Source: a bacterium
GTDB taxonomy: Bacteria > JAAXHH01
Direction: 5' to 3'
DNA: 64,000 bases
Assembly: GCA_963693015.1 (NCBI GenBank)
Contig: OY843748.1
Span: 2,269,337 to 2,333,336 of the forward strand
Shown in pieces: positions 1 through 57,956 of this stretch; the first letter of the stretch is position 1; each line of letters begins with the position of its first letter. A model generated the notes under the pieces. It searched no databases. It worked only from the letters and a program-made list of their open reading frames with translations, and was not told the DNA's origin. The translations under genes and the position numbers were made by a program.

Positions 1-144
1 GCTCAGAAACTCGATCATATTCTCGTCAGTAGCGCGCTTAAGAAGCTGGGAGCCGGGTTCGACGTGGTCCACGTCAACTGCGAGTACCTCGACGCTCCGA
101 GCGACCACGACCCGCTGGTGGCCCGTCTGACCCTCGGGAATTGA
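1..144 (+). CDS. C-terminal fragment of endonuclease/exonuclease/phosphatase (EEP) family protein, extracellular nuclease-like (5' truncated by window)
   Basis: Frame 1 translates AQKLDHILVSSALKKLGAGFDVVHVNCEYLDAPSDHDPLVARLTLGN*; LDHIL and SDHDP are the hallmark C-terminal EEP motifs. Not in ORF track. Confidence 0.85.
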   Translation, partial: AQKLDHILVSSALKKLGAGFDVVHVNCEYLDAPSDHDPLVARLTLGN

Positions 145-479
145 TTTCTACGGCCTCGGGGCCTTGAGGTGCGCCACCGAGTTTGAGCGTTCCTCTGCCG
201 TACCCACCAGTTCCATTTATATCGATGAAGTCCTGCGGCTGTCCTGCGGCCGCGAGGAATTCACGATATATTCTCTATTATACCCCCATTATTCACACTA
301 AGGTCACTCTATTCTCTGTATATTATACATGCACCTGATGTGAATCGGCGTGCTTTGATTCCACTATCATTACCGAAGGATTTCGGGCGTATTGCGCTTC
401 GGGTGATAGATCAATTTCACAGGAGGATCAGGGGCGGGACAGTGCTCTGATTCGGAAGTCATAGATAAGGAGTTTCGTC

Positions 480-983
480 TTGTTTACTCTTTTCGGTTCA
501 TTCCGGAACGCATTGGCGTGTCTGATCACCGTAACGATCACGAGTGTCGGTTGCGGTGCGATCACGCAGGGAACCCGCCAGGACATTCCCGTACAGTCTT
601 CGCCCAACGCCGTTTCAATCGAGGTCGCCGGGCAGACGTACACTACGCCCACCACGTTGAATCTGGAACGCAAGAACGAGTACATCCTGAAGTTCTCCAA
701 AGAGGGGTACGAGTCCGCCCAGATTCATATTACCAAACACCTTAGCGGCGGCTACCTCGTGTTCGATATCCTGTTGGGATTGGTCGGGGTGATCATAGAT
801 GCCGCGACCGGCGCCTGGTACAATCTGGAACCCGAGTCGGTCATGGTATCGTTGAGCAAGATCAGCGCGGGACCCGGACCCGCCGAAATCAGGATAGCCA
901 TCGAAAATACCGCGGTCTCCAGCGAATTGGACATCGTTTCGTCCGTCCCCGACGTTCGGTTGGAGGTCATACCCTTGAAGTAA
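480..983 (+). CDS. PEGA-domain-like lipoprotein
   Basis: TTG start after AAGGAG; signal with lipobox-like SVGC; SSP..A.IEV.G...TTPTTLNL.RK...LKFSKEGYE pattern followed by hydrophobic GG..VD..TGAWY segment. Confidence 0.7.
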   Translation: MFTLFGSFRNALACLITVTITSVGCGAITQGTRQDIPVQSSPNAVSIEVAGQTYTTPTTLNLERKNEYILKFSKEGYESAQIHITKHLSGGYLVFDILLGLVGVIIDAATGAWYNLEPESVMVSLSKISAGPGPAEIRIAIENTAVSSELDIVSSVPDVRLEVIPLK

Positions 984-1058
984 GGGGATCCGGACGTTAA
1001 ACGCCGGCAGCACCCGCTGCCGGCAGAAACCACATCGAACAGGAAGGACACCGACATC

Positions 1059-2135
1059 ATGATTCAGCGATTGGGCGGCATGCTGCTGCTCGTTGCAATG
1101 CTCGCATGTGCGGGCGAACGGGGACCGACGGGACCGGCGGGTTCGAGCGGTTCGGCAGGACCGGCAGGGCCAACGGGTGCGCAGGGGCCGGCGGGTGCAC
1201 AGGGACTGCAGGGTGAGCCGGGGCAGACAGGCGCGCAGGGTCCACAGGGAGAGCCGGGACAGCCCTTGAACTGGGCGGAGGTATTGGAAAAAAAGCAACT
1301 ACCTGATGCCGTATACGCGATCGGCCTAAGGGTGCGTGGACGGAATTACGTGATAGGATCAGGATTCGTTGCCTATTTTCGAAATGCCATCTGGACGAAT
1401 GCCCATGTCGTAAATGGACTGAATGACGCAATTGAGTCCTTGGCTTCTTTGAATCCCAGGCCGTTTGCTGTCAAATCTGGAACCTCAGTCGGCGGAACGG
1501 ATACCTACTGGTTGGATCGTTTCAATTACCATATTCACCCTGAATACGACGGTACTACCTCGTCACCGGACGTAGCGGCATTCGTTATCGATGCGAGTTT
1601 TGAGACCGGTGCGTCTTTGCTGCCACGTGATCGTGTAATGAACCTTCGCACTGGGCAGCCGATTGGCACTATAGGTTTTCCCCATGAAATTGAAGATCCC
1701 TTTGCGACAGTTCCCATAGCTACCTTCAAAGAGGGTACAATAAGTGCTTTGCGACCTTTCATGGATGAGATACCTAACCCAGGCAACAGTCGATTTGTAC
1801 AGCACAACTTAGATTTGTCGGGCGGCACGAGTGGCAGCCTCATCTTCGATCACGAAGGATTCGTAATTGCAGTAAACAACGCTGGTACTGAACGCCTCGT
1901 TTTCGATCAGAACACGGGCAGGCCACAGCGCATACCGTCCGGTAACATTGGATTTGGCATCCGTGTAGATGAGGTATGGCGTCTTGTCGAGTTGACAAGA
2001 GTGAGTACGAGGGTAACCGGAATTGCAGGAAGACGCGCAAGTATTTCGTTGGAACCGTTTACTATGACAGACTACCCGCACGCCGCCTACCAACCCTTCC
2101 CCGAGAACTGGAACGGCGAGACCATATTGCCGTAA
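1059..2135 (+). CDS. Lipoprotein with collagen-like Gly-X-Y stalk fused to trypsin-like (S1) serine protease
   Basis: Lipobox MLAC; 17 consecutive GXY triplets (GER GPT GPA ... GQP); catalytic triad motifs TNAHVV, PDVAAF, GGTSGS. Confidence 0.85.
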
Positions 2136-2159
2136 CACTGCGGCAGTGTCGTGGAAGTC

Positions 2160-2220
2160 AAAACCCCGTTGGCGCGTAACGACCTTTCTTTCCTGAGGCC
2201 GGACGCCAACGGGGTTTTTT
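2160..2220 (+). terminator. Probable intrinsic terminator / long-loop hairpin
   Basis: Perfect 15-bp inverted repeat aaaaccccgttggcg (2160-2174) / cgccaacggggtttt (2204-2218) followed by T run; loop unusually long (about 29 nt). Confidence 0.55.
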
Positions 2221-2559
2221 CATTGGAAGCAAACGGTACGGACCGCCGGACTGCCGCGCGGCGTCCTCTACTACCTGCGAGGAGCCAAAGCCGGATATAG
2301 GAACACGAGGGAAATCCTACCTGCATTTCAAATTGCTTCTGGCGCGGTTCATCCCTTCCTGTAGATGCCTCCCCTCGCCGATTCAGCCTGAGCCAGAATC
2401 ACCAACTTTTGTTTATTGTTTACGAGGTTTTCAGATTTCCTCCGACCGAAGTTCAATGAGAGACGGAATCGACATGGGTGTATTCCGGATTTCCGGATCC
2501 GGATCAAATCTGCGAAGTACGCCGGACGGAAATTGATCAAACCCAGGAAAGGATAGATC

Positions 2560-2814
2560 GTGCAACCTGACTCATGGTATAATAGTCCGGTAATTGCGGC
2601 TATCGCTGGTGCCGTAGTCAGTGTCTTTCTGGGACTGGTGACCGGTTTATTGATCTTCTTCGGAACATCGATTGTTCACCGGTTGGATGACATAGATGCC
2701 AGACTCCGCACTGTCGAACAGGACGTTGCTGTCATTAAAGGCCGCTTGAAGATCAACAACACGATTTCAGCAGGTAAGGAGAAGTCATGTGGGAAAACCC
2801 GGTCACATATGTAG
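2560..2814 (+). CDS. Small membrane protein, N-terminal TM + coiled coil
   Basis: GTG start with GGAAAGGA RBS; hydrophobic VIAAIAGAVVSVFLGLVTGLLIFFG then heptad RLDDIDARLRTVEQDVAVIKGRL. Confidence 0.65.
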   Translation: MQPDSWYNSPVIAAIAGAVVSVFLGLVTGLLIFFGTSIVHRLDDIDARLRTVEQDVAVIKGRLKINNTISAGKEKSCGKTRSHM

Positions 2815-2978
2815 TAACTTTGGGCGCGATGGGAAGTCTTTTCAGCATCGGGATTTGGGTCGCCAGAATGAATGCATTCAAATCTTCGGTGGAACAGTCG
2901 CTCGTGGAGATCAAGGAATCGATCAAGGATATACAGGACACCATCAGGAAGATCCTGATCCGGCTTCCTTCTGACTGA
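2787..2978 (+). CDS. Small membrane protein, N-terminal TM + coiled coil
   Basis: AAGGAG RBS; TM VTYVVTLGAMGSLFSIGIWVA then heptad VEQSLVEIKESIKDIQDTIRKIL. Confidence 0.7.
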   Translation: MWENPVTYVVTLGAMGSLFSIGIWVARMNAFKSSVEQSLVEIKESIKDIQDTIRKILIRLPSD

Positions 2979-3085
2979 TGTCCTCCCCGTTCTGGTGAGG
3001 CCGGACGCTTGGTAAGGCCAGACGCGCGGCTAAAGATCATTGCAATCAGACGGAAAATCGACTTGCATATGGCCGACAGGTAAAC

Positions 3086-3520
3086 TTGCAAAAGGTGGAT
3101 AATATGGGCGAAATCGTCGCTGACATCGAGTTGGAGAACGCGGGAGACCACGAGCTGGTCAAGACGGGGCATCTTCGGGAGGGCGACGTCAGGCGGGCCA
3201 CCGTCAAGGCCATCGCGGATACGGGCGCCATGATGCTGACGCTCCCCAGAGACGTGGTCGAGCAGCTCGGTATCGACGTGGTGCGCAAGGCGTGGTTTGC
3301 CCTGGCCAGCGGAGCGCGGATCGAGATGCCGATAGCCGGTCCCCTCATCGTCCGCATAGGAGACCGCTGGATGTTCACCAGTTGCGTCGTCGCGCCGGCG
3401 GGCGCCGACGCGCTGATCGGGCAAATCGTCATGGAGGAACTGGATCTCATCCCGGACCCCGCGCGCCAGACGATCGGGCCACGGCCCGAGTTCCCGGACC
3501 TGCCGGGTTTGAGATTATGA
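3086..3520 (+). CDS. Clan AA (retropepsin-like) aspartic protease, AF_0612-like
   Basis: AIADTGAMMLTLP catalytic motif, C-terminal ALIGQIVMEELDLIPDP; start may be the ATG at about 3104. Confidence 0.8.
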   Translation: MQKVDNMGEIVADIELENAGDHELVKTGHLREGDVRRATVKAIADTGAMMLTLPRDVVEQLGIDVVRKAWFALASGARIEMPIAGPLIVRIGDRWMFTSCVVAPAGADALIGQIVMEELDLIPDPARQTIGPRPEFPDLPGLRL

Positions 3521-3659
3521 TCGTCATGGTCCGACCGCGTTCCCCACACTATTCCGGCGCCACGCCAACGCCGCGAATGATCAACTTCGGATCGTGATCA
3601 GGCGTGAACATCAATATCGCAGTACCACCTGAATAACGTGTCGGGAAGGGAGCAGGGAC

Positions 3660-3866
3660 TTGGCTAAGAACAGTTGGATGAGTGTAGTAATCAAAGGCGC
3701 TTTGATTACGGGCGGAATTGCGCTGTACATTTTCGTGGAATCCGGTACACGCGATCAATTGTCGAGAATGGAAGATAAGATCGACCGCGTAGAGACCAAG
3801 ATCGACGAAGTAAGCGGATACTTCAAGTATAAGGCCAACACTCCTCGCCAAGACAGTCCTCATTGA
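3660..3866 (+). CDS. Small membrane protein, N-terminal TM + coiled coil
   Basis: TTG start after GGGAG; TM VVIKGALITGGIALYIFV then LSRMEDKIDRVETKIDEV heptads. Confidence 0.6.
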   Translation: MAKNSWMSVVIKGALITGGIALYIFVESGTRDQLSRMEDKIDRVETKIDEVSGYFKYKANTPRQDSPH

Positions 3867-4019
3867 CGGGAATTGCAGATCGATTCCGATCATTGATAAG
3901 GTCTGGTATGGCTGGAGAAATCCCAGCGTGCTTACCAATGTGACCAAACAGCGACCGTCCACCGGCTGATATGAAAAAGTAGAGACGGCGGTCGCGCAGC
4001 GGGACCAACCTGACAACCA

Positions 4020-5354
4020 CTACCCGGGCGTCTCGGCGCCGCTTCCCGACAACCGGTGGGTCGCGTACATCAGGCCGCTCAGCAGGACCAGGACCAGGCC
4101 GGCGCCGACGAGCAGCGCGTATTCGTCCAGCAGCAGGACCAGGTACAGGACGGTGTAGAGCGCCGCAAGCACGACGGCTACGTACGCCGTGCTTCGGCCC
4201 GACCTGGAAGCGGTCGCCACGTAGGCGCCGTTCATCAGCGTGATCAGCGCGGCCGCGATGAGATAGCCCCATCCGAAGCCGATGTGTTCGGCCAGCGACA
4301 GGAGCGTGAGGAAGAAGACGACCAGGCCGATGCCCACCACGCCGAACTGCACGACGTGGAAGCGGACGCCCGTGACCAGCTCGATGCAGACCACGCTGAT
4401 CATGGTGAAGACGATGAACAGGATCCCGTATTGCAGGCTGCGGGTCACGGAGCGATAGATGTCATCGGCTTTGAACACGCTGAAGCCGACCCCTTTCTTG
4501 TACTCCGGCGCGCCGATCGCCCGCAGGTGGTCCATCACGGCGTTCCGTCCCCGCCCGTACGCGTCCAGGACCTGCGAATAGCCTCTCGCGAGTTTGCCCG
4601 TGGTCCACGTGGCCGTGAAACCGTCGCCGTCGACGGTCCGTTCGTCGGGCAGGATGCGTCCGTCGAAGCTCGGATGGGGCCACGTCGACGTCATGGTGAT
4701 CCGGGTCTCGTCTCCCACGGGTTCGACGCCGAACCGTTCGGTCCCCCGAAACGTCAGCGCGAGTTGGAACGTGCGGTCCCAGGCGGCCCCGTCGAAGCGC
4801 ACCGGCGCCTGCACCCCTTCGCCGATCGTACCGAAACCGGTGCCGGCCTGCAGTTCCGCCGGCGTGTCGCCGAGTCTGAGCGATCCTTCCTGTATGCCCC
4901 GCGTATCGGATACGCCCACGAGCACCGTCATGCGGTCGAGGATGAGTTCGCCGTACTGGGCCTCGAGTTCCTGGACGTCGAGATCGGGGAATGCGCCGCT
5001 GGCGTTCAGCGACGCCGTGAAGACCGGCACGTCGAAGATCCCCCTGGAGCGGATTTCGTACGTGCTGTTCAGTTCCGCGTCCAGGTCTTCGGGCAGGACG
5101 AAGACGTGCGGTTCGCCCTCTATGAAACTCTCTCCTTCGTCCTCGTTCGGCAGCCGGTAGGGAATGGCCAGGACCGGGCCCACGACGGTCTGCGGCCCGG
5201 ACCATGCGTGACTCACGTTCCGGAGCGCTTCGTCCCGGTAGCCGCTGCGGTCCGTAACCACGTAGATGAGCAGTCCCCACGGAATCATCAGGCCGACGAT
5301 CAGGATGATCGCGATCAGGAATCGAATGGTTGTCGACGAGGTGTTGATCTGCAT
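4020..5354 (-). CDS. creD: Inner membrane protein CreD
   Basis: N-terminal TM, WSGPQTVVGPVLAIPY, WPHPSFDG, YRSVTRSLQYGILFI, multi-TM C-terminus with LLLSLAEHIGF. Confidence 0.9.
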   Translation of the reverse strand: MQINTSSTTIRFLIAIILIVGLMIPWGLLIYVVTDRSGYRDEALRNVSHAWSGPQTVVGPVLAIPYRLPNEDEGESFIEGEPHVFVLPEDLDAELNSTYEIRSRGIFDVPVFTASLNASGAFPDLDVQELEAQYGELILDRMTVLVGVSDTRGIQEGSLRLGDTPAELQAGTGFGTIGEGVQAPVRFDGAAWDRTFQLALTFRGTERFGVEPVGDETRITMTSTWPHPSFDGRILPDERTVDGDGFTATWTTGKLARGYSQVLDAYGRGRNAVMDHLRAIGAPEYKKGVGFSVFKADDIYRSVTRSLQYGILFIVFTMISVVCIELVTGVRFHVVQFGVVGIGLVVFFLTLLSLAEHIGFGWGYLIAAALITLMNGAYVATASRSGRSTAYVAVVLAALYTVLYLVLLLDEYALLVGAGLVLVLLSGLMYATHRLSGSGAETPG

Positions 5355-5662
5355 GGTATCGCGTTCCTTTACGGCGAGGTTCCGGTCTACAGCAGCGGCG
5401 TCTTCATCATTCGATTAGACGACGGACCAGGGGAGATCGTTCCTGAATATGGGTCCATCTCCGTTCTGGCGTGTTTTGATATGCGCACCGTAACATGTTT
5501 TGATATGTTTACCATAAAAGCCGTTCATGGCAACTGTAATAAAAGACGGCGGTGGCTCGCGGTACTTCCTACATCCAACCTTGACGACTTCAATCGAATT
5601 TTGCTTCTTCGAATGAAGGCGGTTAACGTGTCGATCATAAGATGGAAGGCTGGGGACTGCGC

Positions 5663-6001
5663 ATGGCAACGAAAACACTGGATCAACATATTGAGATTAC
5701 TCAGGGTATGTCAGGGGGCAAGCCTCGTATTGCCGGCCATCGAATTACGGTGGAGAACATCGCCGTCTGGCACGAACATCTGGGCAGGAGTGTGGATGAT
5801 ATCGCCACGGAGCATGGGTTGACGCTGGTGGACGTATATGCGGCATTGGCATACTATTTCGATCACCGTACCGAGATTGATCAATCGCTGGAAGAAAGCA
5901 AGACCTTTTTAAAAACTGCGCGTCAACGCTCCTTTTCCAAGGTATCCGAGAAGATTCGAGAATCAGAGCAACGTGGCGAAGATCAAGTACTACACGGATG
6001 A
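5663..6001 (+). CDS. DUF433 family antitoxin
   Basis: GGKPRIAGHRITVENI...LTLVDVYAALAYYFDH motif; ATG at 5663 preferred. Confidence 0.85.
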   Translation: MATKTLDQHIEITQGMSGGKPRIAGHRITVENIAVWHEHLGRSVDDIATEHGLTLVDVYAALAYYFDHRTEIDQSLEESKTFLKTARQRSFSKVSEKIRESEQRGEDQVLHG

Positions 6002-9515: not shown

Positions 9516-9611
9516 CGAGAGGGGCGGCGCTGTCCCGTGAGCCCGTCTCCTGATCGGAGTCATCGAGAGGGGCGGCGCTGCCCCGTGAACCCGTCTTCTG
9601 AACGGAGTCTT
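9516..9611 (+). repeat. Two-copy 48-bp tandem duplication in 5' leader of OCD gene
   Basis: cgagaggggcggcgctg(t/c)cccgtga(g/a)cccgtct(c/t)ctga(t/a)cggagtc at 9516 and 9564. Confidence 0.9.
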
Positions 9612-9613
9612 CC

Positions 9614-10600
9614 ATGAGCCAGGTGCGTCTTCTATCAAGGTCGGATATGGCTTCCGTCCTCACCATGCCGGACGTGATCGAGGCCGTGGAAGCAGGATTT
9701 CGCTCCGCAGGCGAAAAAGACGATGTACCCGTCCGCCTGCCCGTCCGGGTCGCCGACCGTCCCTCGGTCGCCCTCTTCATGCCGGCCTATCTCCACGGTT
9801 CCGGTACGCTGGGCGCCAAGGTCGTTTCCGCCTTCCACGACAATCCTGCCAGGGGCCTGCCGATGATCACGGGGTTTTACGTCCTGTGCGACGCCGAGAC
9901 CGGCCGGCTCATCGCCCTCATGGACGCCACGTACCTCACCGGCATACGGACGGCGGCGGCGTCCGCCGTGGCCACGAAGTACCTGGCCCGTGAAGACGTG
10001 AAGGTACTGGGCATAATCGGAACGGGCGTTCAGGGCCGGTTTCACGTGGACGCGATCCGTGCCGTCCGGCCCATCGAACGGATCGTCGTGTACAACAGGA
10101 CGACCGAGCGGGGCCGTGCTTTCGTGGATGAACTGGCATCCGAGGGGACGTCCTGCCGGCTGGCAGACACCGCCGCCGAATGCGCGGGCGAAGCGGACGT
10201 GCTGGCGGTCTGCACGTCCGGCAAGACGCCGCTCTTCGACGGCGGCGCGATTCGTCCCGGCACCCACGTGAACGCCGTGGGCGTCTTCACCGCCGACTCG
10301 CAGGAACTGGACGCCAAATTGATCCGGCGGGCCCGTGTCTACGTGGATACGTACGAAGGCGCCTTCGAAGAAGCGGGCGACATCCTCGTCCCCCTGCGCG
10401 CGGGCGACCTCGCCCGGGATCACGTCCGGGCGGAATTGACCGAACTCGTCACGGGCAGGAAGGCCGGGCGTACCGGTGAAGCGGAGATCACGGTGTTCAA
10501 GTCCGTGGGTTACGCCATGGAAGACGCGGTCACCGCCAGGCTGGCCTTCGAACGGGCAACGGCTTCCGGGACCGGCGCCGTCTTCGACCTGGAAGCATGA
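9614..10600 (+). CDS. Ornithine cyclodeaminase / mu-crystallin family protein
   Basis: LTGIRTAAASAVA, GIIGTGVQG, HVNAVG, FKSVGYAMED. Confidence 0.9.
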   Translation: MSQVRLLSRSDMASVLTMPDVIEAVEAGFRSAGEKDDVPVRLPVRVADRPSVALFMPAYLHGSGTLGAKVVSAFHDNPARGLPMITGFYVLCDAETGRLIALMDATYLTGIRTAAASAVATKYLAREDVKVLGIIGTGVQGRFHVDAIRAVRPIERIVVYNRTTERGRAFVDELASEGTSCRLADTAAECAGEADVLAVCTSGKTPLFDGGAIRPGTHVNAVGVFTADSQELDAKLIRRARVYVDTYEGAFEEAGDILVPLRAGDLARDHVRAELTELVTGRKAGRTGEAEITVFKSVGYAMEDAVTARLAFERATASGTGAVFDLEA

Positions 10601-11658
10601 AGCGCGTGCTGATCATCCGGTCCGGCGCGGTCGGCGACCTCATCCTCACCCTCCCCGTACTCGCCGCGCTGAAGAAGTGCTACAGCGGCATATCCATCGA
10701 CATGATGGGCGACCCGGGCCGCCTTTCGCTGCTGAAGCAGTACGGTCACGTGGACGAGGTGCTGTCGATCGACAGCCGGAAATTCACTCCCTTGTTCGCG
10801 ACCGGCGGTGCACCCGAGACCGGCGGTGCACCCGAGACCGGCGGTGCGCCCGCGACCGGCGGTGCGCCCGCGGCCGATGCCGGTCCAGCGCTGCACATGC
10901 TTCATTCATACGACGCGATCATATCCTACCTTCCTGATGCCGGAGGGGTGTTTGAGGACAACCTTCGAAAATTCGCGTCCGGTCCGGTGCTTACAGGGCG
11001 GTCCCGACCCTCCGCCGGCCGCAGAATCCACGTGACCCGCGTGTTGATGGACGTCCTGAAGCCCCTGGACGTGGACACCTTCCCCGATCCACCCGAGATT
11101 CCTCCCATGTTGAGCGGCCCGGCGGATGACACGCGTAACCTGGCTTCGGACAGAACACCGATCGCCATACATCCTGGCAGCGGCGGACCGGCGAAATGCT
11201 GGCCGGCCGAGCGTTACACGGCGCTGATCGAATGCCTGGTCGACAGGGGCTACCGGCCGGTAGTAACCTTCGGGCCGGCGGACGACACGGTTCGCCGCCG
11301 CATTCTGCCTCGGATAAAGGCCCGTGACGCGCTTATCGTGCAGGACCGACCGCTCGTCGACATGGCCGCCCTCTACGCCCGGTGCCGGGCGATGATTGGC
11401 AATGATTCGGGTATGACCCACCTTGCCTCGGCGCTTGGCAGGCCGGTCATTGCCCTCTTCGGGCCGACCGATCCGGCCGTCTGGGGTCCCAGGGGGAAGG
11501 CGGTACGCATACTGTGGGGAGGCGGGGAGATCGGGCCAGATGTGGGCGGGTTGACCTGGATGGAGCCTTTTCGCCCACGCAGCCTTGCAGATATCGCCGT
11601 GGAAGCACCCCTCCGAATGCTATTGAATCTCGGCGTAACGGCCGGCACTGCGGTTTAA
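10597..11658 (+). CDS. Glycosyltransferase family 9 (heptosyltransferase-like)
   Basis: IIRSGAVGDLIL, IHPGSGGPAKCWP, IGNDSGMTHLA, LFGPTDP..WGP. Confidence 0.9.
   Translation: MKRVLIIRSGAVGDLILTLPVLAALKKCYSGISIDMMGDPGRLSLLKQYGHVDEVLSIDSRKFTPLFATGGAPETGGAPETGGAPATGGAPAADAGPALHMLHSYDAIISYLPDAGGVFEDNLRKFASGPVLTGRSRPSAGRRIHVTRVLMDVLKPLDVDTFPDPPEIPPMLSGPADDTRNLASDRTPIAIHPGSGGPAKCWPAERYTALIECLVDRGYRPVVTFGPADDTVRRRILPRIKARDALIVQDRPLVDMAALYARCRAMIGNDSGMTHLASALGRPVIALFGPTDPAVWGPRGKAVRILWGGGEIGPDVGGLTWMEPFRPRSLADIAVEAPLRMLLNLGVTAGTAV
10801..10872 (+). repeat. In-frame 18-bp x4 repeat (TGGAPE/TGGAPA) in GT9
   Basis: accggcggtgcacccgag-type units at 10801, 10819, 10837, 10855. Confidence 0.9.
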
Positions 11659-11735
11659 ATCAGTTTCAAGAGATAGAGGTAGTGCTACGTATATACAAAG
11701 TAGATACACAGGAAACACGACGATGTGGAAGCCGC

Positions 11736-11764
11736 TTGACACGATTTCCACGATGTGCTAAGTT
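11736..11764 (+). promoter_or_regulatory. Sigma70-type promoter, probably giving a leaderless transcript
   Basis: TTGACA 11736-11741, 17-bp spacer, TAAGTT 11759-11764, ATG 7 nt later, no SD; inverted repeat GTGGAA(11725-30)-N15-TTCCAC(11746-51) straddles the -35. Confidence 0.65.
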
Positions 11765-11771
11765 CGGCGAC

Positions 11772-12053
11772 ATGCGACCAGATCGATACACGCTGTTGCG
11801 GTTAGGCGCGGTAATCGCGCTCGCCTTGTTCGTACTCTCGACGACGCCACACAACCACGACGACGCCGAATGCGACGACTGCACCTGCGTGCCCTGCCTC
11901 GTCCAGGGCCTCCCGCTGATCGATACCACCGACCGCTCCGGCGCGCAGGAAACCCCCGATGCATCGGTACGGCGAATCCCCTTCGTCTCTGCCCTGGATC
12001 ACCCCCGCAATGCCGAGATCCACGGCAAGGACTCCCGGGCGCCGCCCGCCTGA
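11772..12053 (+). CDS. DUF2946-like His/Cys leader protein ending in RAPP (putative metal-responsive arrest uORF)
   Basis: 93 aa: signal/TM segment, PHNHDDAECDDCTCVPC, C-terminal SRAPPA*. Confidence 0.75.
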   Translation: MRPDRYTLLRLGAVIALALFVLSTTPHNHDDAECDDCTCVPCLVQGLPLIDTTDRSGAQETPDASVRRIPFVSALDHPRNAEIHGKDSRAPPA

Positions 12054-47960: not shown

Positions 47961-48035
47961 CGGGGTGTAGCGCAGTCCGGTCAGCGCACCTGCTTTGGGA
48001 GCAGGGGGTCGGGGGTTCAAATCCCCCCACCCCGA
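47961..48035 (+). tRNA. tRNA-Pro (anticodon TGG), CCA not encoded
   Basis: cggggtg acceptor stem, anticodon arm cctgc-TTTGGGA-gcagg, T-loop GTTCAAATC. Confidence 0.97.
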
Positions 48036-53630: not shown

Positions 53631-54449
53631 ATGGACGACCCACATCGCATAGACGGGGCCGTAGCGGTCGTGACCGGCGCGGCGCAGGGTCTCGGCCTGG
53701 GTATCGCGGAGCGGCTTGCACGCAACGGCGCGACCGTGGTGATGGCGGATCTGCAGCGCGAGAAGGCCGGGGAGGAGGCCGGGAAACTCCGTGAGTTGGG
53801 ATTGGCGGCATATCCCGGGTACCTGGACGTTTCGGACAGCGCCTCGGTCAGCGTGTGCTTCGACGCGGTGGCCGAAGCCCACGGCAGGCTCGACATCCTG
53901 GTCAACAACGCCGGGGTCGGCCAGAAGGTAACGCCCGTCGTCGAACTGGACGACGGAGAGTGGGACCGGGTGATCCGGGTCACGCTGACCGGGACCTTCT
54001 ACTGTTGCCGGACCGCGGGCGCGATCATGGAACGGCAGGAGTCCGGTTGCATCGTGAACATCTCATCCATCAACGGACAGAATCCGGCGGCCCTGGTGGC
54101 GGCCTACAACGCGGCCAAGGAAGGCGTCATCAGCCTTACGCGTACATTGGCCCTGGAACTCGCGGCGTACGGTGTCCGGGTGAACGCCGTCTGTCCGGGC
54201 CCCGTCTATACTGAGTTCAATCGATCCAACATGGCCCAGCGCAGCAAGGCGCTGGGGCTGACCGAGGAAGAGATGATCGAACGGATTCGGGGCGCTATCC
54301 CGCTGGGCAGGTGGGGCGAGCCGGAGGACGTCGCCAACGGGGTGGCGTTCCTGTGCAGCCCGGCGGCGGGCTGGATCACCGGAGAAGTGCTGCGGGTGAG
54401 CGGCGGCATGGAAGGCGTGGCGGCCGCGCCGGGGAGGCGGGGTGAGTGA
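53631..54449 (+). CDS. SDR family oxidoreductase
   Basis: TGAAQGLG, NNAG, YNAAK, VNAVCPG. Confidence 0.93.
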   Translation: MDDPHRIDGAVAVVTGAAQGLGLGIAERLARNGATVVMADLQREKAGEEAGKLRELGLAAYPGYLDVSDSASVSVCFDAVAEAHGRLDILVNNAGVGQKVTPVVELDDGEWDRVIRVTLTGTFYCCRTAGAIMERQESGCIVNISSINGQNPAALVAAYNAAKEGVISLTRTLALELAAYGVRVNAVCPGPVYTEFNRSNMAQRSKALGLTEEEMIERIRGAIPLGRWGEPEDVANGVAFLCSPAAGWITGEVLRVSGGMEGVAAAPGRRGE

Positions 54450-56456
54450 GATGACCAGTATGACATCGGCAACGTATTTAAACTAATTGCGTTGTCGATA
54501 GTTCTCTTGACCACAGCACGGTTGAAAACGCAGTTAGTTATCGAAAATCCGACTACATCCTCTTTGAGCACTTTACTGAATCACTCGAACGCCTTGTCGC
54601 AGTATATCATTAGCTATCCGTGCACCGGTCTTGTTATGCCCGGCGAAGATAAGGTAGTAAAGTGGTCGACCGCGAGTGTTTTGGATTTCGCGTGCAGCGG
54701 AAACATGACCGAAAACGTGTTTGAGCCTCTTTCGATACCATCTCACAAGGGTATCTCCAGCACGTTGAGTTTTCTGGGTCTGCTTACCGAACAGATTCTG
54801 CTCAGAGCTATACAGTACATCAAACCACTCTTCTGTTCCGAAGTATTGGTTAAGTTTATTCCGTTGCGCGCGGGTGAATACACCACTATTGGGCAGTAAC
54901 CTTTGTATAGCCATTCCTACAGGGAAGTTAACAAACACTTCTATTGCCCCTGTTTTTCCGATTTCAGCTACAGTACTCCAAGGAACTTGCATACCAAAAG
55001 GATCCAAGAAAACGACACCTCGCCAACTACTCCATTTGGTGTCTTTGAGAAGTTTAGTCAGATAATCGTTACAGTCTAGTTTGCGAATATGTATACGTCT
55101 AGACGGTATCTTGTCCTTGTAGCTATCCTTCAGTTCTTGTAACTGATGTAGTCTGTTAGTTTCTATTTCGATGAATACGTAGTCAGTAAATGGGTATTTG
55201 GTATCAAGTGCGACATTTGGAGATCCGCTTATGTACTCTGTCGCACCAGCATCCTCAGCAAGATGATCAGAGATCTTAATAAGTGACTGTTGAGATGAAC
55301 CAGTTGTTTGTTGTCTGCGAATCCTGAGAGTTCCTGGTCCAGCGAATGCATCTATATAGAAATAGCCTTTGAAGTTCTGCTTGCGAAGTATAGTGGTGTA
55401 GGCATTGAGGTATTTACTAAGGCAGTCGAGTTTCTCTTTTGCCCATGGGCCAACTTCCATAGGTTCTCTTGAGTTGTGTTTAGGCGCGCCAGCTGCTTGC
55501 AAAGTAGCCCCTTGTACTTTGTAGTTCTCAACTACAGGGTATTCCTGCCATATCTGCCCGTCTAACATATTGCCACCAGCCTTGGGAGTACGTCCACCCC
55601 ACTGTTTGAAAAAAAACGCCACATGTTGATTCTTGCATTGATCGCGCAATTCCCTCAGCCATTCTGTCTTTACTGGTCTTGCTCTCGGACCGCTTTCACC
55701 ACCGGCTATAACCCAATGAATATCCGTAAGATTTACCGTGCCTAATGCACCAATAAGCGGCTCGAACGACACAAATCGGACCGAAGCGTTAATTTGCTTC
55801 AGTTGGTGAAGTCGTATCATCGCAGATGAGTTTTCGATGGATACTCCAAGCCAGATATGCGGCGGCACAGGCGATTCACTATATCGTTGGCGTACGAAAC
55901 GACGCATTATCGAACTACGTTTGGTAAGCACCTGATACACATGCCAGTTGGCTTGTTCCATCGAGTCAAAAACTTGATGTATATATCCAACTGGGATGTC
56001 TTTATGGAACAGATCGCTCATCGAATTAACAAAAATGAGTTGTGGACGTCGCCAAAGTTTAGGTTGTGCAAGACGATCTGGTCGAAGTGTCAGATCAAAC
56101 CCACTTTCGAATGGATGACCTATAACACCACGAAATCGTTCGGAGAACCGTTCGGCATAGCAGTGATCACAGCCCGAACTAACCTTGGTGCATCCTGTGA
56201 TCGGGTTCCATGTGGTATTCGTCCATTCGATTTGACTGTTGGTCGCCATGAGAAATACCTTCTAAATGGTGTCCATCACATTATTACTTAACAATTGATT
56301 AGTATAATGTCAAGTCTACAATCTACTTAGTTCTAAACGGATATATGAAAGCCATCAGTTTGTTTTGGCTGATTCTAATCTACATACCAAATCTGAGTTA
56401 CAAAATCCGGTACGCAGTAGTTAAAACAGGTTCTTAGCAAATGAGTCCAGACAATC
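54450..56456. other. AT-rich horizontally acquired islet between convergent genes
   Basis: Visible drop in GC and codon GC3 relative to flanks; no mobility gene. Confidence 0.8.
54573..56249 (-). CDS. Fused DUF5131 (three-Cys, radical-SAM-like) - TcmP (three-Cys-motif partner, SAM methyltransferase-like)
   Basis: N-half IEWT..TWNPITGCTKVSSGCDHCYA (CX6CX2C), IFVNSMSDLFH, GGESG, FFKQWGG; C-half GPWAKEKL, YIDAFAGPG, FLDPFG; no stop between. Confidence 0.85.
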   Translation of the reverse strand: MATNSQIEWTNTTWNPITGCTKVSSGCDHCYAERFSERFRGVIGHPFESGFDLTLRPDRLAQPKLWRRPQLIFVNSMSDLFHKDIPVGYIHQVFDSMEQANWHVYQVLTKRSSIMRRFVRQRYSESPVPPHIWLGVSIENSSAMIRLHQLKQINASVRFVSFEPLIGALGTVNLTDIHWVIAGGESGPRARPVKTEWLRELRDQCKNQHVAFFFKQWGGRTPKAGGNMLDGQIWQEYPVVENYKVQGATLQAAGAPKHNSREPMEVGPWAKEKLDCLSKYLNAYTTILRKQNFKGYFYIDAFAGPGTLRIRRQQTTGSSQQSLIKISDHLAEDAGATEYISGSPNVALDTKYPFTDYVFIEIETNRLHQLQELKDSYKDKIPSRRIHIRKLDCNDYLTKLLKDTKWSSWRGVVFLDPFGMQVPWSTVAEIGKTGAIEVFVNFPVGMAIQRLLPNSGVFTRAQRNKLNQYFGTEEWFDVLYSSEQNLFGKQTQKTQRAGDTLVRWYRKRLKHVFGHVSAAREIQNTRGRPLYYLIFAGHNKTGARIANDILRQGVRVIQ

Positions 56457-57956
56457 TCACACCCCCGCCATCATCCGCATCACCGCGCCCTGGTCCGCTT
56501 CTTCGCGGGAGAGTTCACCGGCCACACGACCCGCCCGCAGCACCATGATGCGCGTCGACAGATTGAGCACCTCGGGTAGCTCGCTCGACACGAGCACGAT
56601 GGCCGTGCCTTCATGGGCCAGCCGGTCGATCAGGGCGTGTATCTCCGACTTCGCGCCCACGTCCACGCCCCGGGTGGGCTCGTCGATCAGGAGGACCGGA
56701 CACCGCGCGGCCAGCCACTTGGCCAGGACCACTTTCTGCTGATTGCCGCCCGACAGGCCCGCCGTGTCGTACCGGATGTCGTCCGGCCGCACCGACAGCC
56801 GCTTCACGTATTCCCGGGCCAGGTCTTCTTCCCGGCTGCCGCGGATCCACCCGAAGCCGGACCGGTGCGCCAGGGTGGGAAGACCAATGTTCTGGTCCAC
56901 GCGTAGAGACAGGACGAGACCGAACCGCTTCCGGTCTTCGGGCACGAGCCCGATGCCCCTTCGCATGGCGTCGATAGGACGTCGGATGCTCACCGGCCGT
57001 CCCGCGACTCGTATCCGTCCCGTGACCATGGGGTCCAGGCCGAACAGGGCCTGCAGCACTTCGGTCCGTCCGGCGCCCACCAGGCCGGCCAGGGCCAGGA
57101 CCTCCCCGGACCGGACGGAAAAAGACACGCCATCGAACTTGCCCGGACTCGAAAGCCCGTCCGCGGCCAGCATCTCCGCGCCGGGTCCGGTCTCCACGTG
57201 GGAAGGGAAGTACGCTTCGAAGGTGCGCCCGATCATCAGGTTGATCAGCGTGGGCCGGTCCAGTTCGGCCACCGGCCGGGTCGCCACGTGCCGGCCGTCG
57301 CGAAGCACCGTCACGACGTCGCACAGGCGGAAGATCTCGTCCAGGTCGTGGGAGATGTAGATCGACGTCACGCCCTTCGCCCTGAGATCCCGGATATTTT
57401 CCCGCAGCCGTTCGGCTTCCACGTGCGAAAGACTGCTGGTCGGTTCGTCGAAGACGATCACGCGGGCACCGCTGCCCAGGGCGGCGGCGATCTGGACGAG
57501 TTGCTGCTGGGCGACGGGCAGATCGCCGATAGGCGTTGCCACGTCCATCTCTGCGTCTACTGCCTCCAGCATCTTCCGGGCCCGGTCTTCCATCTTCCGG
57601 TCGGAGACGAACACGCCCCGGGCGGGCAGGTCGCCCAGGCAGAGATTCTCGGCGACGGACAGGTTCTCGCAGAAAACGAGTTCCTGGTGGACCATGCCGA
57701 TGCCCATGTCCAGGGCGTCGCCCGGCTCGATCATCTGCACGGGTCGGCCGTCGATACGAATCTGGCCGCCGTCGAGGTCGTAGATACCGGTCAGGATCCG
57801 TCCCAGCGTACTCTTGCCCGCGCCGTTTTCGCCGACCACGGCGTGGCAGGTACCCGCTTCTATGGCGAAGGTCACGTCATCGAGGGCCGTCACGCCCGGA
57901 AACCGCTTGGTGATGCGGTCGAATTCGATGTACGGGTTCGGCGGGTTGCGGTCCAT
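56457..57956 (-). CDS. Sugar ABC transporter ATP-binding protein (RbsA-like, two NBDs)
   Basis: GENGAGKST, FDEPTSSL, LSGGNQQK, IDEPTRGVDVGAK. Confidence 0.95.
   Translation of the reverse strand: MDRNPPNPYIEFDRITKRFPGVTALDDVTFAIEAGTCHAVVGENGAGKSTLGRILTGIYDLDGGQIRIDGRPVQMIEPGDALDMGIGMVHQELVFCENLSVAENLCLGDLPARGVFVSDRKMEDRARKMLEAVDAEMDVATPIGDLPVAQQQLVQIAAALGSGARVIVFDEPTSSLSHVEAERLRENIRDLRAKGVTSIYISHDLDEIFRLCDVVTVLRDGRHVATRPVAELDRPTLINLMIGRTFEAYFPSHVETGPGAEMLAADGLSSPGKFDGVSFSVRSGEVLALAGLVGAGRTEVLQALFGLDPMVTGRIRVAGRPVSIRRPIDAMRRGIGLVPEDRKRFGLVLSLRVDQNIGLPTLAHRSGFGWIRGSREEDLAREYVKRLSVRPDDIRYDTAGLSGGNQQKVVLAKWLAARCPVLLIDEPTRGVDVGAKSEIHALIDRLAHEGTAIVLVSSELPEVLNLSTRIMVLRAGRVAGELSREEADQGAVMRMMAGV

Follow-up and report, generated by a model that had tools for sequence, protein, structure and literature searches.

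Introduction

Bacterial systems that chemically mark DNA, such as BREX with its PglX protein, Dnd/Ssp with phosphorothioation and Dpd with 7-deazaguanine, are found in defence islands and on mobile elements, and they sometimes involve iron-sulphur (Fe-S) or S-adenosylmethionine (SAM) chemistry. Radical-SAM chemistry is also used for defence by the prokaryotic viperins, which convert a nucleotide into an inhibitory analogue. The described system closest to the subject of this study is PDC-M41, a candidate module in the PADLOC collection in which DUF5131 and TcmP are two separate proteins. Here we analyse a gene in which the two are joined in a single polypeptide. It lies in a stretch of 64,000 nucleotides (nt) from the genome of a bacterial sponge symbiont (contig OY843748.1, positions 2,269,337 to 2,333,336; hereafter the window, to which all coordinates refer), occupies 54573..56249 on the minus strand, starts with ATG and encodes 558 amino acids (aa).

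The N-terminal, DUF5131 half of the protein matches the PADLOC model PDC-M41B (E = 3e-101), and the C-terminal, TcmP half matches PDC-M41A (E = 6e-78). The gene had been put forward, in what we call the original prediction, as a candidate novel nucleic-acid modification system. That claim does not survive, because both halves match a catalogued candidate and more than 110 clusters of fused proteins are already public. The gene belongs to a fused clade that is old, within a candidate module that is known but uncharacterised. Both PDC-M41 models fall on one gene here, and a detection rule that expects two genes might miss it.

DUF5131 is also known as the 'bacteriophage protein gp37' family, and we take COG4422 to be its COG. 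COG4422 is significantly enriched in sponge-symbiont genomes, alongside restriction-modification (R-M) genes (PMC5649159), and this enrichment fits the sponge source of the window.

Integrity and age of the fusion

In Logan contigs from three other sequencing runs, belonging to two studies, the sequence continues through the domain junction (nt 55448-55538) free of stops and indels, and both borders of the AT-rich islet that holds the gene are spanned by contigs from other runs at the depth of the flanks. Because independent contigs cross both the junction and the borders, neither the fusion nor the islet is an assembly artefact, and the concern raised with the original prediction, that reads might reveal a stop at the junction, is answered by the unchanged sequence. 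Run X4 ('organism A', library type unstated) covers 42 % of the gene's words on 54579-56111, including a 345-nt contig across the junction; if X4 were RNA, the fused gene would be transcribed as one unit.

A search of 5.8 billion proteins gave more than 110 clusters of full-length fused proteins, 550-585 aa long and 57-99 % identical, many of them encoded on megabase contigs. At 50 % identity the entire fused clade collapses to 1 representative among about 3000 for TcmP (3029 at E ≤ 0.001 in a library of 1.84 billion proteins). In a rough neighbour-joining tree of the DUF5131 domain the fused genes form one long-stemmed clade, which is old and centred on Latescibacterota-like bacteria. A second fusion, from an acidobacterium (L074, Acidobacteriota; 634 aa, with a divergent TcmP), falls elsewhere in the tree and, because it lies outside the main clade, indicates that fusion arose at least twice. 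The argument that a fusion of two otherwise separate proteins is Rosetta-stone evidence for joint action thus stands, and it is strengthened by this independent case.

The fused gene has been under strong purifying selection throughout, with a ratio of nonsynonymous to synonymous substitution rates (dN/dS) of 0.05 for the DUF5131 domain and 0.07 for TcmP; for the whole gene, the ratio against orthologues at the same site is 0.07-0.09. The original prediction allowed that the fusion could be a recent loss of a stop codon. The event is not recent: fused clusters number more than 110 at 57-99 % identity, the ratio is 0.18 for the linker and 0.05-0.07 for the domains, and synonymous divergence between same-site alleles is saturated.

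That the two families are normally separate neighbouring genes, as had been stated, was borne out in every collection sampled. The GTDB sample consisted of the best 80 species-representative loci, profiled with hidden Markov models built from our own alignments, and the IMG/VR sample of 80 loci. In GTDB, DUF5131 precedes TcmP in 49 cases and follows it in 3, 2 pairs are on opposite strands, 24 DUF5131 genes have no detected TcmP, and 3 are fusions; an adjacent pair is therefore present in 54 of 81 loci. The IMG/VR loci contain 38 pairs among 80 (19 with DUF5131 first, 17 with TcmP first and 2 on opposite strands) and 0 fusions. The pair is carried by 439 plasmids in PLSDB, where NCBI names the proteins Gp37/Gp68 and TcmP, and all 439 are split. 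Many proviral contigs carry the pair as well. One protein, P0151 (552 aa), was considered as a fusion in the reverse order and was rejected, being a tandem TcmP-TcmP protein that lacks a DUF5131 domain.

The linker and the ancestral gene boundary

The two domains are connected by a 29-aa linker (aa 239-267; 55449..55535 on the minus strand, as are all features of the gene below). It has the lowest conservation in the protein (0.34) and is disordered in the AlphaFold2 (AF2) model, with a per-residue confidence (pLDDT) below 50, yet it is constrained, with a dN/dS of 0.18. Where the genes are split, DUF5131 has its stop 10-20 codons past a conserved (E/G)(Y/F)P, and TcmP begins with ATG or GTG one to three codons past the DUF5131 stop, just ahead of a conserved VGPWA. 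From this comparison the linker can be read as the old DUF5131 tail, a spacer and the old TcmP N-terminus.

A vestige of the old start codon may be M264 (ATG, 55458-55460), which is preceded by AAGAGA and stands at the position of the ancestral TcmP start, and which is not retained in all fused members (it is P in L008, for example). The original prediction had pointed to an internal TTG at 55502 as a possible start for TcmP alone. This codon is indeed in frame within the linker (L250, 55500-55502), but M264 is the likelier vestigial start.

Nine split pairs (L004, L006, L007, L011, L012, L058, L061, L065 and L070) share one reading frame between the two genes, with just one stop (TGA, TAG or TAA) in between and TcmP starting 1-5 codons after it; many of the pairs with DUF5131 first are parted by such a stop or have overlapping open reading frames (ORFs). 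Programmed read-through was considered and rejected, as the frequency of same-frame split pairs (11 of 31) is the chance expectation. The same-frame, single-stop pairs illustrate how a fusion arises and give no indication of recoding.

The DUF5131 domain

The DUF5131 domain, radical-SAM-like, spans aa 4-238 (55536..56240) and matches Pfam PF07505 with 316 bits against a cut-off of 28.9 (E = 2e-94), over model positions 1-243 of 243. The same half matches PHROG 2045 (E = 5e-93), and this match, together with the IMG/VR loci, agrees with the earlier statement that DUF5131 occurs in phages. The cysteine triad C20-x6-C27-x2-C30 (56160..56192) provides putative [4Fe-4S] ligands and does not vary among 48 fused proteins or among 59 diverse DUF5131 proteins. 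A second motif, G183-G-E-S-G187 (55689..55703), is conserved throughout: none of its five residues varies in the 59 diverse proteins, and among the 48 fused proteins G183 is invariant and residues 184-187 nearly so. It reads as a 'GGE'-type motif, the SAM-binding motif of radical SAM enzymes. The superfamily has a partial (beta/alpha)6 TIM barrel; the AF2 model contains six beta/alpha units in this domain, and the NCBIfam model 'radical SAM mobile pair protein A' matches at E = 4e-20, below its equivalog cut-off. In the RadicalSAM.org classification DUF5131 is Megacluster-5-2, placed next to spore photoproduct lyase (PMC9477430). From its sequence, the assignment of DUF5131 to the radical-SAM enzymes is well motivated.

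At 55992-56042 short unrelated contigs from all four runs pile up, to a depth of as much as 32 compared with about 8. This segment encodes the invariant IFVNSMSDLFH, and the pile-up shows that the same sponge metagenomes contain numerous other DUF5131 genes. Among radical-SAM defence systems, Ophion (10.1101/2025.09.30.679545) was considered and found to be unrelated to the gene.

The TcmP domain

TcmP occupies aa 268-551 (54597..55448) and matches NCBIfam TIGR04474 (three-Cys-motif partner protein) with 204 bits against a cut-off of 53 (E = 4e-60), over model positions 1-260 of 263. Both domain calls of the original prediction were therefore right, with 316 and 204 bits each far above the respective cut-off, and the motifs that it had read from the translation are present, and are invariant or nearly so in the 48 fused homologues: CX6CX2C as C20/C27/C30, FAGPG as F302-G306 and DPFG as D416-G419.

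The predicted fold, Rossmann-like with seven strands, is that of a class-I SAM-methyltransferase of the RlmJ/Trm1/RsmD type. In the full-length AF2 model the domain cores have a pLDDT of 80-95, and Foldseek relates TcmP, with probabilities of 0.99-1.0, to Trm1 (3axs, rank 2), EgtD, SpeE and spermidine synthases, a cap N7-methyltransferase and RsmD/YhhF (2fpo). A search of a viral structure library returned uncharacterised proteins and generic methyltransferases only. When a profile of 109 diverse TcmP proteins was compared with PDB sequences, the best match was the rRNA m6A methyltransferase RlmJ, at a marginal E of 3e-4 (24 bits), with RsmD-type enzymes weaker. The two families align in register, YiDAFAGtG with YLDTHAGAG, then GS-x-x-A, and FLDPFG with LIDPPYE, and a few members of the family match PF04378 (RlmJ) or PF03602 (RsmD family) directly.

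Motif I, D300-A-F-A-G-P-G306 (55332..55352), is the SAM-binding loop after beta1 by alignment with RlmJ; D300 and the surrounding residues are invariant or nearly so across the 109 TcmP proteins. Motif IV, D416-P-F-G419 (54993..55004), is the putative catalytic loop after beta4 and aligns with D-P-P-Y of RlmJ, the usual pattern being (D/N/S)-P-P-(Y/F/W); its aspartate is invariant in the same set, and its proline nearly so. The acidic residue that such enzymes have at the end of beta2 is E361, after strand 356-360, and it hardly varies within the fused clade. DPFG is presumably the Trm1 form of motif IV. The likeness to Trm1 on which the original prediction relied is reasonable, given the Foldseek rank of Trm1 and the D-P-[PF]-[YFG] form of motif IV, but the closest relative by sequence is RlmJ.

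Between motif I and the next helix there is a variable, disordered insert (aa 303-341; 55227..55343) with a pLDDT of 29-39 and a conservation of 0.38-0.57. In the alignment RlmJ, too, has extra residues at this point, and it is possible that the TcmP insert is a target-recognition element. As judged by its motifs, TcmP holds the full set expected of a base-flipping methyltransferase of amino groups (N6 of adenine, N2 of guanine or N4 of cytosine), and such an activity is predicted for it.

Some TcmP proteins are longer. On IncP-type megaplasmids, as in pJB37 of Pseudomonas aeruginosa (L089, 2417-5574), the pair follows a site-specific integrase, and TcmP is 438 aa long because some 140 aa are added at its C-terminus. 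The TcmP of a Methylobacterium (L011, 10751-11848) has a weak C-terminal match to a winged helix-turn-helix (wHTH) domain, at 23 bits and below the cut-off. Some members may thus carry a DNA-binding extension.

A single-gene cassette in the window

The fusion gene is the only gene of an AT-rich cassette, or islet, at 54450..56456 (no strand), which extends between the stop codons of two neighbours: a short-chain dehydrogenase/reductase (SDR) gene on the plus strand, ending at 54449, and an ATP-binding cassette (ABC) ATPase gene on the minus strand, ending at 56457. The 2-kb block formed by the gene and its two spacers has a GC content of 0.45 against 0.63 around it (0.42-0.47 over 54500-56500, compared with 0.62-0.69 in the flanks), and the GC content at third codon positions (GC3) of the gene is 0.41, compared with 0.79-0.88 for its neighbours. 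The original description of the islet as foreign DNA is half the story: its GC and GC3 are atypical, but the same site is occupied in three diverged lineages, as described below.

Within about 5 kb of the gene lie an ABC sugar-transporter operon, the SDR gene and genes for a peptide-binding protein, SulP and SRAP. No nuclease is encoded in the cassette or within about 5 kb of it in the window, so that the cognate nuclease of an R-M system is missing there; the earlier remark that no nuclease is nearby was accurate.

The AT-rich upstream spacer (206 nt, GC 0.34; 56250..56456, minus strand) is the presumed site of the cassette's own promoter. It contains TTGACA at 56306-56311, spotted by eye only; no consensus sigma-70 site was found on its coding strand, nor any Rfam family within it. 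A terminator was likewise not found at the cassette. Signatures of mobility were also sought at the islet: it has no flanking direct repeats (the short repeats present look like chance), no tRNA, no integrase and no Rfam element.

Elsewhere in the window, the sole RNA gene is a tRNA-Pro(TGG) at 47961-48035 on the plus strand, which is 6.4 kb from the islet and not associated with it. A second compositionally atypical stretch (1-6000, GC 0.52-0.57) contains an ORF (1059-2135, plus strand) for a eukaryote-like protein with collagen triple-helix repeats and a trypsin-like peptidase domain, of the kind reported in sponge symbionts.

Evolution at a fixed site

The cassette is found at the same site, between the ABC ATPase and SDR genes, in a 99 % identical strain (L087) and in two related lineages (L001 and L083), at about 9600-11800 in all three loci; the flanking proteins of the two lineages are 84-90 % identical to those of the window. 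Synonymous divergence (dS) of the flanks between lineages is 0.45-0.7, whereas for the fusion gene, in comparisons of the window with L001 and L083, dS is about 2.3 (saturated) and dN is three-fold higher than in the flanks. Between L001 and L083 themselves the dS of the fusion gene is only 0.74, and between the window and L087 it is 0.01, which is under the 0.02-0.06 of the flanks. Across lineages (window against L001 and L083) the cassette's spacers are unalignable, and the alignment resumes exactly at the flanking stop codons. GC3 of the fusion gene is 0.38-0.41 in all same-site lineages, compared with about 0.8 around it.

These disparities in divergence, spacers and GC3 imply that the history of the cassette gene is decoupled from that of its flanks. 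Two scenarios would account for this. In one, a fixed hotspot exchanges its alleles; in the other, AT-biased mutation shapes the cassette in situ, outside the forces that keep the rest of the genome GC-rich. A scan of metagenomes with the flanking ABC ATPase gave only paralogues of at most 59 % identity and so no cassette-free ABC/SDR junction.

Neighbourhoods in other genomes

In unrelated hosts, genes of the fused clade have a GC content of 0.49-0.62, usually under that of the host, and they often lie in defence islands. For example, in L251 (10001-13318) the fused gene is part of a type I R-M locus, where hsdM follows it after 9 nt. In L253 (10001-15654), within a DUF499/DUF3780/N6_Mtase island, it overlaps by 4 nt the start of a gene for a DUF1156 methylase of 1318 aa. 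The arrangement of these two loci suggests co-transcription and possibly cooperation with DNA methylation systems. Other fused genes are near HsdRMS and a Multi_ubiq/ThiF/JAB cluster (L085) or amid HNH, Dcm+HATPase, AAA_15 and Fic genes (L002).

A stand-alone DUF5131 gene belongs to a conserved arrangement, in the order GHKL/HATPase, C5 DNA methylase, DUF5131 and Fic (L009, 5828-11900; L002, 13479-18948). Its DUF5131 nests inside the fused clade and is 77 % identical to the N-terminal domain encoded in the window, and the module looks like a case of TcmP loss or of a partner swap to a Dcm-type methylase. L002 holds both this stand-alone copy and a fused gene. On a Latescibacterota contig (L010; 10001-11961 and 14193-16212) there are two DUF5131 genes, one, a stand-alone gene likewise nested in the fused clade, followed by a TPR and LA2681-like HEPN protein and the other by a 448-aa protein that has a weak GMT-like wHTH match and is not detected by the TcmP profile. 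Genomes hold from zero to several copies, and on plasmids the conserved unit is the pair alone.

Discussion

We suggest that the fusion protein is a bifunctional, SAM-dependent modifier of nucleic-acid bases that is used in conflicts among phages, plasmids and hosts. Its chemistry, substrate and role are what we infer rather than observe, and we judge the proposal to be evenly balanced between right and wrong. The gene would have originated by an old loss of the stop codon between two adjacent genes of a widespread, mobile DUF5131-TcmP module. TcmP would serve as the SAM-binding Rossmann amino-methyltransferase module, which recognises and flips a purine or a cytosine in a nucleic acid, most likely DNA; DNA is favoured as the substrate mainly because DNA methyltransferases recur as neighbours. 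DUF5131 would bind a [4Fe-4S] cluster through C20, C27 and C30 and cleave a second SAM, so as to direct a 5'-deoxyadenosyl radical at the same flipped nucleotide; the base modification that results would go beyond simple N-methylation. No other dedicated partner would be needed. In a conflict, the module would either mark and protect DNA or disable invading DNA, and in this genome it would form a solitary cassette with its own promoter, fixed at one chromosomal site, with a turnover of alleles that outpaces the genome around it.

A bolder version of the proposal is doubtful. According to it, the protein is a self-sufficient two-SAM enzyme, in which the methyltransferase-like domain hands a flipped base to a minimal radical-SAM domain. 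It would install or remove a nucleobase mark not previously described, would underlie a widespread, nuclease-free layer of conflict among phages, plasmids and hosts that often cooperates with R-M methyltransferases, and would be represented in the window by an AT-rich, fixed-locus cassette that is a diversifying immune allele of sponge symbionts.

Several points weigh against the main proposal. PDC-M41 is a computational candidate only; we found no published experimental work on any DUF5131, TcmP or PDC-M41 member, the names occurring in tables only, and the papers that tested PDC candidates tested others. The cysteine spacing, CX6CX2C, departs from the canonical CX3CX2C of radical SAM enzymes. 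A DUF5131 profile had no match among PDB sequences, and Foldseek, queried with an AF2 model of the N-terminal domain alone (mean pLDDT 68, with the first 53 residues poor), matched no radical-SAM entry, its weak matches being generic beta/alpha barrels at E ≥ 5e-3; because neither search finds a solved relative, the radical-SAM assignment is not structurally confirmed. The enzymes of solved structure that come nearest to TcmP have RNA, not DNA, as their substrate. In the lineage of the window and in two other loci (L252 and L254) the fused gene stands amid housekeeping genes and has no defence neighbours, and elsewhere its adjacency to R-M genes, which are so common in variable regions, may be coincidental. 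Finally, no effector or sensor is evident that could turn modification into immunity.

The lack of a nuclease or any other effector beside the module also counts in favour of an abortive-infection or antiviral-metabolite enzyme. Such an enzyme would leave polymers unmarked; on infection it would inflict radical damage on host or phage RNA or DNA, or would convert free nucleotides as viperins do, with TcmP as a nucleotide-binding module. Viperins and Ophion are precedents for radical-SAM defence, and the stand-alone DUF5131 gene followed by a TPR-HEPN gene in L010 would suit an arrangement of this kind. We nevertheless consider it unlikely: no motif of an amino-methyltransferase appears to be missing from TcmP, not even the base-binding motif IV, which is typical of polymer modifiers, the protein has no sensor or antitoxin domain, and DUF5131 is classified closer to the DNA-acting spore photoproduct lyase than to the viperins (PMC9477430). 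That same proximity in the radical-SAM sequence network (PMC9477430) would favour a role in DNA repair or demodification, in which DUF5131, by radical chemistry like that of the lyase, reverses a lesion, or strips a methyl or alkyl mark, on a base bound and flipped by TcmP, and in which mobile elements and hosts erase an opponent's protective marks or repair damage. The repeated adjacency to DNA methyltransferase genes and the carriage on plasmids and proviruses are in keeping with such a role. It is nonetheless quite unlikely, as the retention of all SAM-binding motifs argues for a methyl donor role of TcmP over that of a pure reader, and a demodifying enzyme would put the marks of a neighbouring R-M system at risk. 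We also know of no precedent for the demethylation of nucleic acids by a radical SAM enzyme.

If the affinities of TcmP are taken at face value, a housekeeping modification of rRNA or tRNA must be weighed as well, in which an RlmJ/Trm1-like methyltransferase works with a radical-SAM partner and has nothing to do with conflict. RlmJ, Trm1 and RsmD all modify rRNA or tRNA, and the gene of the window sits amid housekeeping genes, is kept across species and is under strong purifying selection. The distribution of the family is, however, patchy and mobile, extending over plasmids, proviruses and defence islands; genomes hold zero to several copies; 3029 TcmP representatives in the 1.84-billion-protein library are few for a universal function; and a GC3 of 0.4 against 0.8 and a divergence incongruent with that of the flanks also speak against it. 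We therefore regard this explanation as improbable. Hardly credible is that the gene is an artefact or is decaying, whether as an assembly chimera, as a recent stop loss with a non-functional product, or as a source of internally initiated TcmP only. Split relatives do differ from the fusion by a single in-frame stop, and M264, with AAGAGA upstream, is located where stand-alone TcmP proteins start. Against this, contigs of three runs cross the junction unchanged, fused clusters number more than 110, selection acts on the linker (0.18) as well as on the domains (0.05-0.07), M264 is not universal, and there is no sign of programmed read-through, so that this explanation is largely refuted.

A bifunctional base modifier acting in conflicts is thus the reading that we prefer. 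Among the gene pairs of mobile elements and defence islands that await characterisation, DUF5131 with TcmP is one of the larger, and the plasmids that carry it include Pseudomonas aeruginosa megaplasmids. The single chain fixes the stoichiometry and the proximity of the two domains, and it is therefore a practical entry point for biochemistry and structure. Should a new mark on DNA or RNA turn out to be the product, a modification pathway would be gained, and possibly also a new principle of immunity or anti-restriction; should nothing turn up, an often-predicted 'defence candidate' can be down-weighted. The fusion is accordingly of value as a handle on an uncharacterised enzyme rather than as a new system, and the cassette as a non-ameliorating element at a fixed locus.

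Comparison with known systems

RlmJ (the 23S rRNA m6A2030 methyltransferase, PF04378) and the N2-guanine RNA methyltransferases Trm1 and RsmD share with TcmP the class-I Rossmann fold, the D-x-x-A-G-x-G form of motif I and an insertion after it. TcmP differs in having its own N-terminal W-x3-K-L helix and a C-terminal subdomain, and in being described as always travelling with a radical-SAM-like partner. For DUF5131, the comparison is with radical SAM Megacluster 5 (spore photoproduct lyase and MJ0683-like proteins), which has in common with it an N-terminal three-cysteine motif, GGE and, as far as the AF2 model of DUF5131 goes, a beta/alpha core of about 240 aa. The motif is the canonical CX3CX2C in those proteins and CX6CX2C in DUF5131, which is known from sequence and a model.

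At the level of systems, the likeness to BREX, Dnd and Dpd lies in the occurrence of a candidate marking enzyme on mobile elements and within defence islands; in sequence they are unrelated. BREX, Dnd and Dpd include several more components, among them ATPases or nucleases, whereas the conserved unit here consists entirely of one protein with two domains. PDC-M41 is far closer: both halves of the protein match its models almost end to end, the order of the domains is that of the commonest split arrangement, and the neighbourhoods, mobile elements and defence islands, are similar. The difference is that PDC-M41 consists of two proteins, and the gene described here encodes one polypeptide with a 29-aa linker and stands alone among housekeeping genes.

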